From: Gammaproteobacteria bacterium
Lineage (GTDB): Bacteria > Pseudomonadota > Gammaproteobacteria > JAADGQ01
DNA length: 64,000 nt
Reading direction: 5' to 3'
Assembly: GCA_015490755.1 (NCBI GenBank)
Contig: WFXF01000002.1
Span: 8,433-72,432 of the forward strand
A program made the position numbers and the translations under genes. Every line of letters begins with the position of its first letter. Positions within the stretch are counted from its first letter, which is position 1. The notes under the pieces were generated by a model. It was not told the DNA's origin, searched no databases, and saw only the letters and a list, made by a program, of their open reading frames with translations. Below, piece by piece: positions 29,919 to 54,100 of the stretch.

Positions 29919-30923
29919 TTATTTTACCTGATCCGTTTGCTTGATTTTCTTCAAATATATAATCGATGCTCTTCGGTTCTCATCATCTGGATAGACACGA
30001 CCGGAGGTGAGGCAAGTAAAAATATGTTTGAAAACTTCGCCGGGAGTGCCTTTTTTGGTTCCAGAGCGAAAATAGGAGTGGCCTTTGGGGCGGTCATATG
30101 CACTATTAACATCATCGCAATCAACTCGATATACATTTCTTGGTGTTTTCTCTATATCTTCCGGGCCGGTATGACCTAACCTGCGAGATGCAATTTTATT
30201 TTTAAGGTTTGAAACTTTGCTTGCTCGAAGTGCCAGGTCATCCGATGCGTGATAAACAATAACATTACGTGAAGTATGGCAGATTAATTCTCCAGGCTCA
30301 CCTTTGTGAAGTGTTTCATTGACTACATCAGCAGCGACCATGAAGGTGTTTCTAAAAATCAGGGGCAACCCTTTGGGCAGGTCATATTTGCCCCAGACGG
30401 ATAATGTTTCTCGTAGAACACGGTTCCCCATAGAGTGAGCTAATAAGTTGACTCTTTTCAGGCAGGGTTCATCCTGAGGGTTATATTTTTCAGAATTACG
30501 CCATGCTATGAATTTTTCTAATACTCTTGCAAAAGAGAAGGCACTTTGGTCAGCAGCTTTTTGATCATCCCAATAATCCTTGATAATTCCTAAATCGTTG
30601 TCGCATGGCCAAACGATGGGGATGACTAGAATTTCACCCTTTTTAGTTTTTTCACAAAGGTTTTGAAATTCATTAACGGCAGAAAACACATCTTCAGGAA
30701 GGTTGGAAAACCCATGGATGTATATAAGAATCTGGCGACATTCCGACCCTTTTAGCCGACTTAAAAACTCAATACTGCCAATCTCTTTGTACTCTTTTTC
30801 AGATAAACGTTCACAGAAAAATACTGAATTGCTTGCTGCATTATTATTTAGGTCAAAATCAAAATTTCGTCCAACCCGGGTTCGAATGCTCTGTTTTGGG
30901 AATCGGTTTGTAATAAAAATCAT
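29919..30923 (-). CDS. alpha/beta-hydrolase fold protein (putative esterase/lipase, DUF900-like). It is an orphan and AT-rich.
   Basis: 334 aa with the nucleophile elbow AHSMG (GxSxG-type), IYIHGF upstream, and candidate Asp/His downstream. It sits where nadD would normally precede rsfS. Confidence 0.7.
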   Translation of the reverse strand: MIFITNRFPKQSIRTRVGRNFDFDLNNNAASNSVFFCERLSEKEYKEIGSIEFLSRLKGSECRQILIYIHGFSNLPEDVFSAVNEFQNLCEKTKKGEILVIPIVWPCDNDLGIIKDYWDDQKAADQSAFSFARVLEKFIAWRNSEKYNPQDEPCLKRVNLLAHSMGNRVLRETLSVWGKYDLPKGLPLIFRNTFMVAADVVNETLHKGEPGELICHTSRNVIVYHASDDLALRASKVSNLKNKIASRRLGHTGPEDIEKTPRNVYRVDCDDVNSAYDRPKGHSYFRSGTKKGTPGEVFKHIFTCLTSGRVYPDDENRRASIIYLKKIKQTDQVK

Positions 30924-30953
30924 TTTAATTTCTCTCCTTATAAAAATTAAGCT
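30824..30953. repeat. copy 1 of a 130-bp direct duplication (the first 33 codons of the hydrolase gene plus 30 bp upstream)
   Basis: Near-identical, with a single 1-nt indel, to 32124-32253. Confidence 0.9.
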
Positions 30954-31020
30954 CTGAACTTTGAACCGAAGTAAAAGAGCAAGTCAGAGTGTAGAAGTTA
31001 TTTCGTGAACGTTCCTAAGT

Positions 31021-31110
31021 GCCGTGTTAAGTGGTTTTGCTTTTCACTATAAGGATATCAGTTTGAAAAACGGTTTTGGTGACCCTAATAATCTGCATAT
31101 GTTTCTTTGA
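31021..31110 (+). pseudogene. fragment paralogous to the C-terminal part of the 185-aa membrane protein at 32905-33462
   Basis: About 80% nucleotide identity to 33247-33336. It translates to AVLSGFAFHYKDISLKNGFGDPNNLHMFL*, against AVLSGFAFHYEDINLAGGFGDPDNLHMLLG in the intact gene. Confidence 0.4.
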
Positions 31111-31120
31111 GTTTTGGATG

Positions 31121-31148
31121 TTGATTGTAATAAATCTAATGTTATAAT
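31121..31148 (+). promoter_or_regulatory. candidate sigma-70 promoter of the TA operon
   Basis: TTGATT, then a 16-nt spacer, then TATAAT, ending 38 nt upstream of the antitoxin ATG. An AAGAGG RBS lies at 31175-31180. Confidence 0.4.
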
Positions 31149-31186
31149 GTGTATCTAATGTATGCACAGAAAAAAGAGGTTATCTT

Positions 31187-31450
31187 ATGAGCAAAACCGC
31201 ATCTATCAATATGCGTGTTGAGCCTAGCCAGCACGAACTTTTAACAAAGGCATCAAGAATTCTACATAAAGATAGAAGTGCCTTTATTTTAGATATTGCC
31301 TGTCGAGAAGCAAAAAATGTACTGCTGGATCAACGTTTGTTTTTATTAGAAAGTGAGGCTTTTGAAAAGTTTGAGCAGGCTTTAAATACTCCACTGGCTG
31401 AAAACAGTAGACTAGAGCAACTTATGGCTGAGCCGTCACCGTGGGATTAA
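31187..31450 (+). CDS. DUF1778-family antitoxin of the TacA/AtaR/KacA type (RHH fold)
   Basis: 87 aa. INMRVEPSQHELLTKAS…SAFILD…A…VL… matches the DUF1778 consensus. It overlaps the toxin gene by 10 bp. Confidence 0.88.
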   Translation: MSKTASINMRVEPSQHELLTKASRILHKDRSAFILDIACREAKNVLLDQRLFLLESEAFEKFEQALNTPLAENSRLEQLMAEPSPWD

Positions 31451-31938
31451 TAAAAAAACCTGAATTACTTGATAGCAAACATAATGTTTTAGGCTTTAAC
31501 TGTGGTAATGAAACCTTAAATGATTGGTTAAAAAAGAAGGCTTTAAAAAATCAAAGGCAGGGAGCAAGTAAAGCCTTTGTTATTTGTGATGACATACAGG
31601 TTGTTGGTTACTACGCTTTGGCAACAGGCAGTGTGGAAAGAATAAATGCACCCAAGTCTTTAGCACGAAATATGCCGAACCCTATACCTGTTATTGTTCT
31701 TGGCAGGTTGGCGATTGACCAGCAGTTTCATGGTAAAAAACTTGGTTCAGCACTACTTAAAGATGCCATAAAACGTACTATTTATATATCTGAAAATGTA
31801 GGTGTAAAGGCTTTACTGGTGCATGCAATTTCAGAAGAAGCTAAAAGATTTTACCTTCACCACAATTTTATTGAATCACCTATAGAATCAATGACGTTAT
31901 TATTATCAATGAATAATAAGAAAAGACTTATAATCTAG
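31441..31938 (+). CDS. GNAT-family toxin (aminoacyl-tRNA-acetylating, TacT/AtaT/KacT-like)
   Basis: 165 aa with an acetyl-CoA binding segment (…QQFHGKKLGSALLKDAIKR…) and the conserved pairing with an upstream DUF1778 antitoxin. Confidence 0.86.
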   Translation: MGLIKKPELLDSKHNVLGFNCGNETLNDWLKKKALKNQRQGASKAFVICDDIQVVGYYALATGSVERINAPKSLARNMPNPIPVIVLGRLAIDQQFHGKKLGSALLKDAIKRTIYISENVGVKALLVHAISEEAKRFYLHHNFIESPIESMTLLLSMNNKKRLII

Positions 31939-32100
31939 GAGCCTGTCCGAGAATGAAAAGTCTACTGCGGAAAATCCATTTCGGCCATATTTGGTGTAAA
32001 TTTTCGTTAAATAGAACAACTATTCGCCTCAAATTTACACCAAATCTGCCATCAAAATGGCTTTCCCTCGCTACGACTTCCATTCTCGGACAGGCTCCTA
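31938..32100. repeat. 163-bp palindromic MITE-like element with 17-bp terminal inverted repeats (GAGCCTGTCCGAGAATG … CATTCTCGGACAGGCTC)
   Basis: Left and right TIRs, and internal inverted segments (ATTTGGTGTAAATTT / AAATTTACACCAAAT), are directly visible. It starts at the toxin stop codon. A second partial copy lies at 51147-51254. Confidence 0.7.
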
Positions 32101-32123
32101 GTCATGGTACTTTACCAATGAAC

Positions 32124-32253
32124 TGAATTGCTTTGCCGCATTATTATTTAGGTCAAAATCAAAATTGCGTCCAACTCGGGTTCGAATGCTCTGTTTTGGG
32201 AATCGGTTTGTAATAAAAATCATTTTAATTTCTCTCCTTATAAAAATTAAGCT
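32124..32253. repeat. copy 2 of the 130-bp direct duplication. It carries a truncated hydrolase start (46-codon relic ORF on the minus strand).
   Basis: Matches 30824-30953. Confidence 0.9.
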
Positions 32254-32904: not shown

Positions 32905-33462
32905 ATGATGAAAAAGTATTTAGCGATCTGCTGCATATTATTTAGCTGGAATTGCTCTGCTCAAGCTCAGGAATACATGCCAGAACACTTTTTGGATTTG
33001 TCTGTTAAGCCGCAACCGTATACATCCTATATTCAATTAGCCCAGCTTGATACGGCAAATTTAAATGCTACCCATGAAGGCCATAATGAAGAGAAGAAAC
33101 CCCTGTTTAAATCCAGGCCTGTGACTTTGAATAAAGTGCATAAATATCTTGGTTACGCTTCAATGGTAAGTGCTGTATTGACAGGGTTGTCACCCAAAAC
33201 AGCCGGGGGTCCTCATGAGCTTTTTGGTACAGCCGCAGCCGCTTTTGGTGCGGCAGCTGTGTTAAGCGGTTTTGCTTTTCATTATGAAGATATCAATTTG
33301 GCGGGTGGTTTTGGCGACCCGGATAACTTGCATATGCTTCTTGGCATTTTAGGAACCGCAGGTTATGCCGTTGCTGTGAGTAGTGGTGAAGATGGTGGGC
33401 ATGGTGGTCCTGGTACTCTTGGTGCGCTCAGCATGGCTATGGCTATTAAATTAACCTGGTAG
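32905..33462 (+). CDS. hypothetical protein: signal peptide, a roughly 70-aa periplasmic segment, then Gly/Ala-rich TM helices flanked by His residues
   Basis: 185 aa with no recognisable family. Tightly coupled (a 12-bp gap) between the b561 gene and the c-type cytochromes. Confidence 0.6.
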   Translation: MMKKYLAICCILFSWNCSAQAQEYMPEHFLDLSVKPQPYTSYIQLAQLDTANLNATHEGHNEEKKPLFKSRPVTLNKVHKYLGYASMVSAVLTGLSPKTAGGPHELFGTAAAAFGAAAVLSGFAFHYEDINLAGGFGDPDNLHMLLGILGTAGYAVAVSSGEDGGHGGPGTLGALSMAMAIKLTW

Positions 33463-49319: not shown

Positions 49320-51038
49320 TTAACTCGTAATTACTCGGTTGATTTCATCCAGGGTTGTTAAACCTTGAAGCACTTTTTTAAGTCCGGACATTCTTAAATC
49401 GGCCACTCCCTCTTTTTTCGATAGTTCGGCGAGTTGCAGGGCGTTGCCACCTTCCATGATGAGTTTGCTCATTGTTTCTGAAACAGGCATGACCTGATAA
49501 ATTCCAACCCGCCCTTTATAGCCTTGGTGGCATTGATCACAACCCACGGCCCCATATATCGCTAACTCCTCTAGTGTACCCTCTTCGAAGCCTTCTTTTA
49601 AGAGTGCTTTTTTTGGAATATCAACCACTTGTTTGCAGTGAGGGCACAATCGCCTGGCCAGACGTTGAGCGATAATAAGAGAAACGGATGAAGCCACATT
49701 AAATGGGGCTACACCCATATTAAGTAAACGAGTGAGTGTTTGCGGTGCATCGTTGGTATGCAAGGTTGAGAGCACCATATGGCCGGTCTGTGCAGCTTTA
49801 ATAGCGATTTCCGCTGTTTCAAGGTCACGAATCTCACCCACCATAATAATGTCAGGATCTTGTCTTAAAAAAGATTTGAGGGCAGCTGAAAAGGTGAGTC
49901 CTACTTTGGGTCTTACATTGACCTGATTGATGCCGGGCAAATTGATTTCGGCAGGGTCTTCAGCCGTTGAAATGTTACGCTCTTCTGTATTAAGGATATT
50001 CAATCCTGTGTAGAGTGAAACTGTTTTACCGCTTCCCGTAGGGCCAGTGACCAGGATCATTCCGCTCGGTTTTTTCAGTGCATTGAGGTAGAGCGTTTTT
50101 TGGTCTTCTTCATAGCCCAGGGCATCAATACCTAGTTGAGCGCTACTGGGGTCAAGAATACGCATGACAATTTTTTCGCCAAACAGTGTCGGGCACGTGC
50201 TGACACGAAAATCGATGGCTCGATGTTTTGATAGAACCATACGCATTCTTCCATCTTGTGGAACACGCCGCTCTGAAACATCCAGCTGTGACATGACCTT
50301 GATGCGTGCGGCTATTTTTAGTGTCAGGCTGACAGGGGGGGCAGCGGCTTCAATGAGAATGCCATCGACCCTGTAACGAATTCGATAGAACTTTTCAAAG
50401 GGCTCAAAGTGCAGGTCGGAAGCATTTTTGTTGATCGCATCAAGCAAGATTTTATTGACAAAACGAACAATGGGAGTGTCATTGATCTCATTTTCACTTA
50501 AATCTTCATCGGACTCTTCATGGCTACTTGAGATGTCCAGGTCATCAAGCTCTTCATCATCAAGCCCGGCCATGGAGGTATCCATTGCCTCCAGCGTTTT
50601 TTGTATGGTTGTTCGTAGCTTGTCCTCTTCAACCAGTATGGCTTGAATATGGGCATCGGCGTGGAACTTTATTTCATCCAGGGCACCCAGGTTAAGAGGG
50701 TCAGAGACCGCTACAAACAGACGGTTTCCACGCTTGTATAACGGTAATAGATTGTGCTTGCGTATGAGCGTCTCTGACACCAGTTCGATGGGAGCCATCT
50801 CCATATCCATCGCTTCCAGGTCAAAGAACGGGATGCCAAACTCTCTGGAAGCCGCTGATGCAATTGTAAGGCTGTTAACTATTTTGTTTTCTACCAAATA
50901 GCTGATGAGTGGCAGTGTTGCTTCATCTGCTTTTTGTTGATGTTCAAGCGCACTTTCATGATCAAACACACCATCCATAACAAGGCAGCGGGATAAGCCG
51001 GTGAGTTGATCCGTTGTTGTGCTTTTTGTTTCGTCCAT
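49320..51038 (-). CDS. pilB: type IV pilus assembly ATPase PilB
   Basis: An N-terminal GSPII-like domain, Walker A (GPTGSGKT) and a tetra-Cys motif (CPHC…CDQC). Confidence 0.95.
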   Translation of the reverse strand: MDETKSTTTDQLTGLSRCLVMDGVFDHESALEHQQKADEATLPLISYLVENKIVNSLTIASAASREFGIPFFDLEAMDMEMAPIELVSETLIRKHNLLPLYKRGNRLFVAVSDPLNLGALDEIKFHADAHIQAILVEEDKLRTTIQKTLEAMDTSMAGLDDEELDDLDISSSHEESDEDLSENEINDTPIVRFVNKILLDAINKNASDLHFEPFEKFYRIRYRVDGILIEAAAPPVSLTLKIAARIKVMSQLDVSERRVPQDGRMRMVLSKHRAIDFRVSTCPTLFGEKIVMRILDPSSAQLGIDALGYEEDQKTLYLNALKKPSGMILVTGPTGSGKTVSLYTGLNILNTEERNISTAEDPAEINLPGINQVNVRPKVGLTFSAALKSFLRQDPDIIMVGEIRDLETAEIAIKAAQTGHMVLSTLHTNDAPQTLTRLLNMGVAPFNVASSVSLIIAQRLARRLCPHCKQVVDIPKKALLKEGFEEGTLEELAIYGAVGCDQCHQGYKGRVGIYQVMPVSETMSKLIMEGGNALQLAELSKKEGVADLRMSGLKKVLQGLTTLDEINRVITS

Positions 51039-51146
51039 TATGAAAGATGAGCTTTATAGAGTTTCTCACTTTTATCGGCTTATAGGGTGTTTGTTTTAAG
51101 ATGAAGGTATTTGATTGCCTGGTTTGTAGCGTGTAATCAAGGACAG

Positions 51147-51254
51147 TTTTTCGGTATTTTGAGGCGAATAGTTGTTCTATTTAACGAAAATTTACACCAA
51201 ATCTGCCTCAAAATGGCTTTCCCTCGCTACGACTTCCATTCTCGGACAGCCTCC
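51147..51254. repeat. second, partial copy of the MITE-like element (right half and TIR)
   Basis: …TTTACACCAAATCTGCC[T]CAAAATGGCTTTCCCTCGCTACGACTTCCATTCTCGGACAG[C]CTCC is almost identical to 32048-32100. The centre is inverted relative to copy 1. Confidence 0.65.
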
Positions 51255-51342
51255 TGGCGGGCGAAGCTCGGCAGGCAGTGTAAACGTCATCATAATCATA
51301 AAATAATCGGCAGGGACCTGTTTCTGAGACCGCCGCTCAACT

Positions 51343-52650
51343 TTATTTATGACACAGCTCTTCAATTTCGGCGACAGTTTTTGGTGCCGCTTGTGTAAGG
51401 ACTTCATTTCCATCATTCGTTACTAATATATTGTCTTCAATACGAATGCCGATATTCCACCACTTTTTTGCAACGTCTTTGTTGTTGGCTGCGATATAAA
51501 GCCCTGGTTCAATTGTTAAAACCATACCGGGCTCAAAAACTCGCCAATTTTTATCTCGCTTGTAATCACCGGCATCATGCACATCCATACCGAGCCAGTG
51601 GCCGGTACGATGCATGTAAAAAGGTTTGTAGGCCTTCTGCTTTATGAGTTCACGCGGCGCTCCTTTTAATAGACCCAGCTTAATGAGCCCTTTGGTGAGT
51701 TCCCGTATAGCGGCAGTATGTGGGGCATTCCAATGGTTTCCTGGCTTGACCTTTTTGATTGCAGCCAATTGCGCTTTGAGAACAACTTCATAAAGGGCAC
51801 GTTGTTCAGCATTAAAGCGGCCATTAATGGGGAAAGTGCGTGTTATATCTGCGGCGTAAAAGTCATACTCTACGCCAGCATCTATCAATAAAAGCTCTCC
51901 GTCATTTAGAGGCATACTGTTTTCTGTGTAGTGCAAAATACATGCGTTTTTACCTCCGGCGACAATGGAGGGGTAGGCTGCATCACGACAGCCCATGCGG
52001 TTAAATTCGTGTGTGATTTCAGCTTCGATCTCATACTCCATCATGCCGGGCTGACAACATTGCATGGCGCGCCGATGGGCGCTGGCTGAAATATCTGCGG
52101 CGGTACGCATGGCTTTAATTTCTGCGCGGCTTTTAAAGAGGCGCATTTCATGCAGTAAGGGTTCAATGCCAATGAAGTCGGTGGGAGCGCTGATACCTTG
52201 ACGTGCCATTGCGCGTACCTGTTTAACCCAGCCCATAAGCCTTTGGTCGAAATCCTGATTCTCTCCCAATGTGCAATAAATCTGTTGGCGATCTTTAAGG
52301 AGTTCAGGGAGGTGTTTGTCTATCTCCTTGATCGACAGTGCTTCATCGGCACCCCATTGATTTCGAGCACCTTCCAAACCCGCACGTTTACCGTTCCAGA
52401 TCTCTTTTTCTTTATCTCGTTCACGACAAAATAGAACAAATTGCCCCTGTTTACGCCCTGGAATGAGAGCAAGAATGGCTTCAGGTTCGGCAAAGCCGGT
52501 GAGGTAAGCAAAATTGCTGTTTGGGCGAAAAGGGTAATCAACATCACTGTTACGCTGTTGCTCTGGTGAGGTAGGCAAAATAGCAATATTGCCCACGCCG
52601 ATTTTTTTCATGAGCCGTTTCCGGCGCTGGAAAAACTCTTTTTTATCCAT
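51343..52650 (-). CDS. pepP: Xaa-Pro aminopeptidase
   Basis: An M24B fold with an N-terminal AMP_N domain and metal ligands (D, D, H, E, E). Confidence 0.93.
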   Translation of the reverse strand: MDKKEFFQRRKRLMKKIGVGNIAILPTSPEQQRNSDVDYPFRPNSNFAYLTGFAEPEAILALIPGRKQGQFVLFCRERDKEKEIWNGKRAGLEGARNQWGADEALSIKEIDKHLPELLKDRQQIYCTLGENQDFDQRLMGWVKQVRAMARQGISAPTDFIGIEPLLHEMRLFKSRAEIKAMRTAADISASAHRRAMQCCQPGMMEYEIEAEITHEFNRMGCRDAAYPSIVAGGKNACILHYTENSMPLNDGELLLIDAGVEYDFYAADITRTFPINGRFNAEQRALYEVVLKAQLAAIKKVKPGNHWNAPHTAAIRELTKGLIKLGLLKGAPRELIKQKAYKPFYMHRTGHWLGMDVHDAGDYKRDKNWRVFEPGMVLTIEPGLYIAANNKDVAKKWWNIGIRIEDNILVTNDGNEVLTQAAPKTVAEIEELCHK

Positions 52651-53862: not shown

Positions 53863-53919
53863 GCTGTCAAAGCGAATGGTTCTGGGTTAAACTAAAAACC
53901 AAGGCATATTCTGCAACGT

Positions 53920-54100
53920 TTGCCAGCTTGTCTGAGATGGTCTTGGGCCTAATTATATCTCTCCGGGAACGCGTCCCCGATGCTGTTGTGCATGCCCGTT
54001 TTACGGGTCGCCTGATGCATCATATGTGTGCCCACTTGAACCCTTGGTTCAAGACTGATGACAGCAGCGGCGCTTGTGGATATGCCGCTCTTTTTGGTTC
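53920..54100 (+). ncRNA. ssrS: 6S RNA (SsrS); ends are approximate
   Basis: Lies between zapA and ygfA. It contains UCUGAGAUG near the 5' end, and ACAUGUGUGCCCACUUGAACCCUUGGUUCAAGACUGAUGACAGCAGCGGCGC resembling the E. coli 6S 3' half (…CACCUUGAACCAAGGGUUCAAGGGUUACAGCCUGCGGCGGC…). A hairpin (AGCGGC…GCCGCU, 54066-54089) is followed by TTTTT. Confidence 0.6.

Follow-up and report, generated by a model that had tools for sequence, protein, structure and literature searches.

The repeat analysed here lies in a 64-kb window (the whole stretch of DNA that was examined) and directly follows a toxin–antitoxin (TA) operon, which together with the repeat forms part of a 1.17-kb insertion flanked by a short direct repeat. 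The features of this locus are listed below, with positions counted from the first letter of the window; TIR is used for the terminal inverted repeats, and copy 1 and copy 2 refer to the two MITEs found in the window.

30823-30953, no strand: left copy of a 131/132-bp direct repeat, made up of the DUF900 gene 5' end and its upstream region and present as a single copy in the related genome L125
30954-32121, no strand: 1.17-kb insertion, missing in L125, in which MITE copy 1 lies together with the TA operon and a gene fragment
31187-31450, + strand: TacA-type antitoxin gene (Pfam PF08681 TacA1, E = 1.8e-21)
31441-31938, + strand: GNAT (TacT-type) toxin gene (Pfam GNAT domains), with its stop codon in the left target duplication of the MITE
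31935-31938, no strand: left CTAG target-site duplication, in which TAG at 31936-31938 is the toxin stop codon
31939-32097, + strand (the sense of the family model): intact MITE copy 1, which measures 159 bp with both TIRs included and is recognised by its TIRs, profile score and hairpin
31939-31955, + strand: left TIR, GAGCCTGTCCGAGAATG, a perfect 17-mer
31986-32048, + strand: inner stem with the arms ATTTGGTGTAAATTT / AAATTTACACCAAAT (15 nt, perfect) around a conserved, asymmetric centre, TCGTTAAATAG-loop-CTATTCGCCTC
32081-32097, - strand: right TIR, CATTCTCGGACAGGCTC as read on the + strand, a perfect 17-mer
32098-32101, no strand: right CTAG target-site duplication, as read from the sequence
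32122-32253, no strand: right copy of the 131/132-bp direct repeat, 97% identical to the left copy

The initial annotation had placed a 163-bp palindromic repeat with 17-bp TIRs at 31938-32100, and this element is real, with its limits now corrected by 1–3 bases. Copy 1 reads ATAATCTAG / GAGCCTGTCCGAGAATG / 125 nt / CATTCTCGGACAGGCTC / CTAGTCATGG in the window, measures 167 bp with both CTAGs included (31935-32101), and has a perfect inverted repeat of 21 bp if CTAG is counted. Three matches to the TIR with no more than three mismatches were found in the window, where 0.07 would be expected from shuffled sequences. The description of the whole element as one long imperfect hairpin was borne out when the fold prediction was run, as copy 1 folds into a single hairpin both as RNA (-77.4 kcal/mol, z = -13.3) and as DNA (-48.2 kcal/mol, z = -13.4), and none of 200 shuffles folded as well (0/200). 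Scored against a family profile derived from 13 members, copy 1 itself among them, it reached 144.8 bits in the forward sense and 59.5 bits in reverse. The open reading frames inside copy 1 are no larger than 51 and 57 aa, there is no transposase gene among them, and a protein search with the 51-aa frame found no homologue; judged by its sequence, the element appears to have no credible coding capacity. Copy 1 is structurally intact, with perfect TIRs and CTAG on both sides, and could move if a transposase is present elsewhere in the genome, so far as present-day activity can be inferred.

The surroundings of copy 1 were compared with related DNA from other genomes. In L125, which shares ~82% nucleotide identity and the same gene order, the DUF900 hydrolase gene directly faces the cytochrome b gene, and the TA operon, the MITE and the duplication are all lacking, i.e. 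the whole 1.17-kb insertion is missing. The neighbouring 184/185-aa gene has a homologue of which an 88-bp piece is also found in this insertion, and the structure as a whole is the one expected if a 1.3-kb circle had integrated through one crossover within the repeat. The TA cassette (31112-31937) is found in other contexts at 85–87% identity without the MITE, and in the two TA homologues L122 and L123, neither of which has the MITE, the downstream DNA is unrelated to the window. A precise empty site for copy 1, for which the junction sequence would be ATAATCTAGTCATGG, was not recovered from L125, L122 or L123.

A second, rearranged copy in the window

A second partial copy, with its centre in the opposite orientation, had been reported between pilB and pepP. 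This copy is also real and its limits are now set at 51141-51253.

49320-51038, - strand: pilB, neighbour of copy 2
51141-51253, no strand: MITE copy 2, a truncated and rearranged remnant found by profile search, with the centre inverted and the right arm direct
51237-51253, - strand: right TIR of copy 2, CATTCTCGGACAGCCTC (the variant whose fourth TIR base is G), with CTGG directly after it
51343-52650, - strand: pepP, neighbour of copy 2

Over its right 69 nt (51188-51255), copy 2 runs in the same direction as copy 1 and matches it at 97% identity. The 45 nt of the centre are identical to copy 1 as the reverse complement only, and copy 2 lacks both the left arm and the left TIR. Its two strands score equally against the profile (63.6 and 63.1 bits).

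The annotation had gone on to propose a foldback element that flips or recombines, and the idea of an element that flips is not upheld by the full-length relatives described below. All 17 of the aligned relatives (17/17) share one arrangement of centre and arms, in the fixed order TIR - CTACTGCGGAAAA - variable stem - TTTTCGTTAAATAG - loop - CTATTCGCCTCAAAT - variable stem - TTTCCCTCGCTACG - TIR, and all full-length copies score ~60–95 bits higher against the profile in the forward sense than in reverse. The inversion of the centre is unique to copy 2, since the full-length relatives examined all keep the one arrangement, and a replacement of one arm by the complement of its partner would describe it equally well. 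It seems to be a single event of recombination or template switching within the palindrome and not a property of the family. Having lost one end and been rearranged within the palindrome, copy 2 is dead, and the 64-kb window therefore holds two copies of which one is dead.

Relatives of copy 1 and their target site

Relatives were sought by an exact scan for the TIR, GAGSCTGTCCGAGAATG, in one genome per species (596 Gb), and this returned at least 117 loci. It should be noted that ~140 chance matches are expected in 596 Gb for a 17-mer with one two-fold position, so single TIR matches prove little. However, the TIR matches among those listed (117 loci) are not random, as they include 75 small paired-end elements with an inverted partner TIR 81–372 bp away (allowing the partner up to three mismatches), the sizes of these elements have modes at 139 bp and 158–161 bp, and several genomes give many contigs with TIR matches. 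When the interiors of the 75 small elements and copy 1 were compared without their TIRs, at least four families could be distinguished, and copy 1 was placed in the 158–160-bp class, members of which align with it over the whole length at ~70–83% identity.

The hosts of this class include two Ectothiorhodospiraceae MAGs and a Mariprofundaceae (Zetaproteobacteria) MAG with four copies, as well as members of the Granulosicoccaceae, Algicola, Thiotrichaceae and unclassified Gammaproteobacteria. The class is also found, without annotation, on pMPC6-328K, a conjugative plasmid of Pseudomonas sp. MPC6. Several copies per host are seen elsewhere, in the Mariprofundaceae (L048, L053, L056 and L093) and in the Ectothiorhodospiraceae (two in L002, plus L097). 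A metagenome scan with a 27-mer specific to the subfamily found in the window returned a further member of the class, 83% identical, on a single JGI contig from a different organism. With the TIR found as paired ends in dozens of genomes, the view that copy 1 belongs to a MITE-like family and is not a local duplication can be accepted. The TIR scan of viral contigs gave two single matches, neither of which was paired with a second TIR or scored significantly against the profile (one of these lies within GC-rich coding sequence and was rejected as a chance match), and the TIR was unmatched in the phage collection.

Two assembly records bear on copy 1 itself. The window, in which the order of the genes looks gammaproteobacterial, is 100% identical to contig JALTWX010000063.1 of GCA_027051705.1, and two independent assemblies of the source organism break inside copy 1, at window positions 32061 and 31962. 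As assemblers break at repeats, these breaks point indirectly to copy 1 being repeated. The family seems to be undescribed, as no match to the 13-mer core of its TIR was found among ~8 million searchable papers and the plasmid record carries no annotation for it; a 2024 review on prokaryotic MITEs does not mention IS1182.

A search for target-site duplications had been suggested as a check on the element, and CTAG was found on either side of copy 1. Among the matches listed, CTAG is found on both flanks of 31 of 76 elements, with the inner flank positions the most conserved. Because CTAG is palindromic, a longer inverted repeat and a duplicated target look alike where both flanks are CTAG, but non-palindromic flank pairs can tell them apart. 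Four of these pairs are direct (CTGG/CTGG, CTAT/CTAT, CCAG/CCAG and ATAG/ATAG) and one is inverted, and the flanks of the family as a whole thus speak for a target resembling CTAG that is duplicated over 4 bp. CTAG is a scarce sequence in this DNA, with 37 sites in the window compared to the 238 expected from base composition.

Duplications of this length are found among members of the IS1182 family and MITEs related to them. ISPse1, an IS1182-family element of Paracoccus, is 1653 bp long with a 16-bp inverted repeat and a 4-bp direct repeat (PMC3281130), and the ISMac2-related MITEs of Methanosarcina acetivorans are 160 and 169 bp long with inverted repeats of 25–26 bp, the 160-bp one having a 4-bp direct repeat (PMC3852290). 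ISPsy36, an IS1182-family element of Pseudomonas syringae, has the palindromic target GGCC (PMC8027508). The 4-bp duplication found here agrees with ISPse1 and the ISMac2-related MITEs, and the palindromic target agrees with ISPsy36 (PMC3281130, PMC3852290, PMC8027508).

Insertion sequences with the same terminal repeats

Insertion sequences (ISs) with these TIRs were found at two of the loci among the matches listed, L052 and L083, and the long open reading frames adjoining the other single-TIR loci are ordinary host genes. The first is a 1744-bp IS at 2772-4515 of L052, from Marinobacterium profundum, which has the ends GAGGCTGTCCGAGAATG / CATTCTCGGACAGCCTC and CTAG on both sides. Its 504-aa open reading frame matches the NCBIfam model NF033551 'IS1182 family transposase' (E = 1.3e-115; its score of 387 bits is above the cut-off of 270), and the Pfam matches of this transposase are DUF772 and DDE_Tnp_1_6 (PF05598, PF13751), as well as DDE_Tnp_1. 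The protein shares ~29–34% identity with IS1182 transposases annotated on plasmids, including that of ISPse1, and so represents a divergent IS1182 clade. The second, L083, is an interrupted IS in an Acidobacteriota MAG that has the same TIR at its one intact end; inward of this TIR, the N-terminus of the transposase is 58% identical to the L052 protein over 203 residues, and the locus reads as one in which the TIR has been parted from the transposase by an IS110-type gene (MKQHTVGIDISKAHLD...).

These ISs are also found in company with MITEs. M. profundum holds both the full-length IS (L052) and the 159-bp MITE class (L070 45-203, and L034), and in L052 and L083 alike the IS stands head-to-tail with a MITE remnant, the two having one CTAG in common. 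The TIR of copy 1 differs from the ends of the L052 IS by a single base at position 4, which is C in copy 1 and G in both of the full-length ISs. No significant similarity was found past the 17-bp TIR when the MITE interior was compared with the subterminal regions of the L052 and L083 ISs, so the MITE is not a simple deletion derivative of those two ISs, and the proposed partnership between MITE and IS is one of shared TIRs only. A tblastn search found no IS1182 transposase in the 64-kb window.

Our preferred explanation, to which we give a probability of about 0.85, is a MITE that an IS1182-type transposase mobilises and that inserts at CTAG with a 4-bp duplication. A DDE transposase of the divergent IS1182 clade would mobilise the MITE in trans, recognising the 17-bp TIRs (GAGSCTGTCCGAGAATG) and cutting out or copying the MITE, which would then be inserted at a rare palindromic CTAG that becomes duplicated on both sides. 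Such mobilisation in trans would presumably also take place within the source genome. MITEs of this kind are already known, and copy 1 represents no novel type of element but a commonplace relic of mobile DNA.

The toxin stop codon, the foldback and their significance

Copy 1 had been described as beginning exactly at the toxin stop codon, and this is correct in that the TAG (31936-31938) lies within the left CTAG and copy 1 follows from 31939. To place this in context, stop codons were counted for 78 paired-TIR elements among the matches listed, using 506 unoccupied CTAG sites in the same DNA as the control. For 17 of the 78 elements (22%), the TAG in the flank is also the stop codon of an adjoining ORF of ≥80 codons, compared to 65 of the 506 free CTAG sites (13%) found at the stop of such an ORF (Fisher p = 0.03), and this modest excess is what the purging of insertions within genes would give. 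Copy 1 starts at the toxin stop because CTAG holds TAG on either strand and insertions at C-TAG spare the upstream gene and survive. The length of the toxin is unchanged in homologues (165 aa; ~90% identity), and a toxin homologue with 87% DNA identity ends in ...ATCTAA, with homology to the window stopping at the MITE boundary. Given the targeting of CTAG, the juxtaposition with the toxin stop needs no functional explanation.

The annotation had suggested that copy 1 may act as a transcriptional terminator for the TA operon. The sequence after the stem is CTAGTCATGGTACTTTACC, which has no T-run, and a terminator scan of 31900-32150 reported nothing, so a canonical terminator function is unsupported. 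The hairpin may have a putative stabilising or processing effect on the tacAT mRNA. MITEs such as the Correia and ERIC elements modulate mRNA stability.

These points bear on the more general proposal that copy 1 is a functional structured RNA, or a terminator or 3'-end stabiliser of the tacAT operon, whose position at the stop codon reflects that function. The hairpin is very stable and lies directly 3' of the stop codon, its internal mismatched blocks and overall polarity are conserved, and pairing is kept by compensatory changes across the 17 relatives. In the alignment of these sequences 89% of cells are paired, compared to 77% in column shuffles and 32–50% with the partner slid by 1–3 columns, 24 of the 50 pairs have been changed on both sides, and none of 500 shuffles reached any of the observed pairing measures (0/500). 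At TIR position 4, C-G and G-C are switched at both ends together (8 and 7 sequences, respectively), and the conserved mismatched blocks of the 159-bp class place TCGTTA opposite CGCCTC and CTACTGCGG opposite CGTAGCGAGG. However, the mismatches show no strand asymmetry, with 40 G:T and 39 A:C, so pairing is not favoured on one transcribed strand, and the four 159-bp-class copies abutting a stop codon are evenly split between sense and antisense orientation relative to that gene (two each). The element also matches no Rfam family, as Rfam 15 gave only sub-threshold, chance matches to miRNA precursors at copy 1 (E = 0.13–0.35), and the only gathering-score match in the whole window is 6S RNA. 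Together with the missing T-run, the empty terminator scan at the element and the targeting of CTAG, which explains the position at the stop codon, these results make an RNA-level function quite improbable, and the covariation is read instead as a constraint at the DNA level or as concerted evolution of both arms.

The choice of superfamily was also considered, as an IS630/Tc1-like transposase had been named as a possible cognate. If the TA at the centre of CTAG is taken to be the duplication, the G and C beside it become the ends of an element that starts GGAGCC, and copy 1 would then be a MITE of another superfamily such as IS630/Tc1-mariner. Published IS1182 members, on the other hand, give 4-bp duplications (PMC3281130, PMC3852290), and the non-CTAG flank pairs found here match directly over four bases and not over two. 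Moreover, the only transposases found between these TIRs at the loci listed are of the IS1182 family, so that the assignment to IS630/Tc1 is very improbable and we replace it with IS1182.

Integron attC sites are imperfect palindromes following a cassette ORF, with an inverse core RYYYAAC and a core GTTRRRY at their ends. That copy 1 is local and does not move, whether as a palindromic duplication found in this genome alone or as an attC-like site of the TA cassette, is hardly credible, even with just two copies in 64 kb and the element at the 3' end of a TA cassette found in other contexts as attC sites would be, because homologues that match over the whole length, again with these TIRs and with CTAG on the flanks, lie beside unrelated genes in many unrelated genomes, the L122 and L123 TA homologues do not have the element, and its ends (GAGCCTG... 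/ ...CAGGCTC) lack the attC core sites. A REP/BIME identity was rejected together with the attC and local duplication possibilities.

Returning to the MITE mobilised by an IS1182-type transposase, comparisons can be made with several known systems. The Correia elements of Neisseria are palindromic MITEs of ~100–155 bp with 26-bp TIRs, a duplicated TA and alpha and beta variants, which form long hairpins and are often co-transcribed with neighbouring genes; to our knowledge no transposase has been identified for them, whereas a partner family is identified here and there is no evidence here of an RNA effect. The ERIC/IRU elements of enterobacteria are ~127-bp imperfect palindromes found across related genera, in which paired substitutions keep the arms complementary, and copy 1 resembles them in both respects. 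In contrast to ERIC, for which we know of no defined partnership between TIRs and a transposase, the family described here spans several phyla, and there is no sequence similarity between the two (no Rfam match). The ISMac2-related MITEs are, by their description, of the same class, being ~160 bp long and non-coding with IS1182-type TIRs and a 4-bp duplication (PMC3852290), but they come from another host domain, and the family here is bacterial with the 17-bp TIRs GAGSCTGTCCGAGAATG and a strict CTAG target. With ISPse1 and ISPsy36 the family has in common inverted repeats of ~16–17 bp, a duplication of 4 bp and, as its target, a palindromic tetranucleotide; here this is CTAG and not GGCC, and the element in the window has no transposase, although that of its partner in L052 passes the NCBIfam IS1182 model.

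One further possibility, which we regard as unlikely, is that the 159-bp class may be a single old element spreading horizontally under constraint, whose foldback is functional, and not a set of decaying deletion derivatives. This draws on the fixed polarity, the conserved mismatched blocks and the compensatory helices seen in hosts which include Gamma- and Zetaproteobacteria as well as a conjugative Pseudomonas plasmid. If true, the foldback could, for example, be needed for transposition as a cruciform or single-strand hairpin, or could bear a binding site for a host factor, and this would amount to a structural DNA requirement of IS1182 transposition that is so far undescribed.

No long-standing question is opened by this MITE family, and its practical value lies in annotation and assembly. 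Recognising the family explains hairpins found beside stop codons as a by-product of CTAG targeting, and further members can be sought using the signature CTAG + GAGSCTGTCCGAGAATG + ~125 bp + reverse complement + CTAG. There is a modest hint that IS1182-type MITEs retain their foldback through compensatory change, and this family-wide compensatory upkeep of a polar foldback is the one feature that merits a second look by a specialist.

Insertion carrying the tacAT operon and the MITE

Both the TA operon (tacAT) and the intact copy of the MITE (copy 1) are cargo of a 1.17-kb insertion which is bracketed by a direct repeat derived from the start of the DUF900 gene, as follows:

30823–30953: left copy of the direct repeat (131 bp), comprising the 5' end and upstream region of the DUF900 gene
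30954–32121: 1.17-kb insertion lying between the two repeats, with the TA operon and the MITE as cargo
32122–32253: right copy of the direct repeat (132 bp), 97% identical to the left copy

Comparison with a related genome (L125) found this stretch in a single copy, where DUF900 and the cytochrome b gene face each other directly, and the layout of repeat and insertion is compatible with the single-crossover integration of a 1.3-kb circle. Inside the insertion and just upstream of the TA promoter is an 88-bp piece (31028–31115) of a gene homologous to the 184/185-aa gene. As this piece is closer to the copies found in relatives (82–84% identity) than to the resident copy at 33256–33350 (78%), the inserted DNA is suggested to have come from a related but different genome. 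The tacAT cassette (31112–31937) was also found in two unrelated contexts (L122 and L123) with 85–87% nucleotide identity, where the homology extends from roughly 75 bp before the antitoxin to the toxin stop codon, and in L122 the cassette adjoins a DDE_Tnp_1 transposase gene.

Elsewhere in the window is a 6S RNA (SsrS) gene at 53905–54086 (+) (Rfam RF00013, 76 bits, E = 3e-13); nothing else in the window reached the gathering score of an Rfam family.

CTAG target sites and tandem elements

The window contains 37 CTAG sites compared to the 238 expected from base composition (about 6.4-fold under-represented), and there are therefore few potential targets for the MITE family. Elements with the family's TIR often lie head-to-tail with one CTAG common to both neighbours (L052 2700–2771, L083 5694–5837, L009 40–77, L060 3285–3322 and L097 3510–3547), and these cases include both full-length insertion sequences (L052 and L083), each abutting a MITE remnant. 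The CTAG left beside one copy seems to serve again as the insertion target of another. The IS1182-type element of L083 (5838–7400), from an Acidobacteriota MAG, appears to be interrupted by an IS110-like gene (the protein begins MKQHTVGIDISKAHLD) located between the left TIR and the transposase gene.

Possible sub-lineages, longer variants and a plausible route of spread of the MITE

Position 4 is the only variable TIR position in the alignment of 17 full-length relatives (columns 4 and 160), with C at both ends in eight, G at both ends in seven, and the remaining two mixed. The window holds one of each type (copy 1 is C and copy 2 is G), and the difference may separate two sub-lineages, each with a transposase of matching specificity. 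The centre of the MITE evidently tolerates cargo, as longer variants of the same class (L050 3592–3963, 372 bp, and L034 1–226) contain additional DNA within the central loop or close to it. One full-length member of the 159-bp class, flanked on both sides by CTAG, is found in an unannotated intergenic stretch of the conjugative plasmid pMPC6-328K from Pseudomonas sp. MPC6 (L124 6001–6167; NZ_CP034782.1 140983–141149), making this plasmid a plausible vehicle for the spread of the family between taxa.
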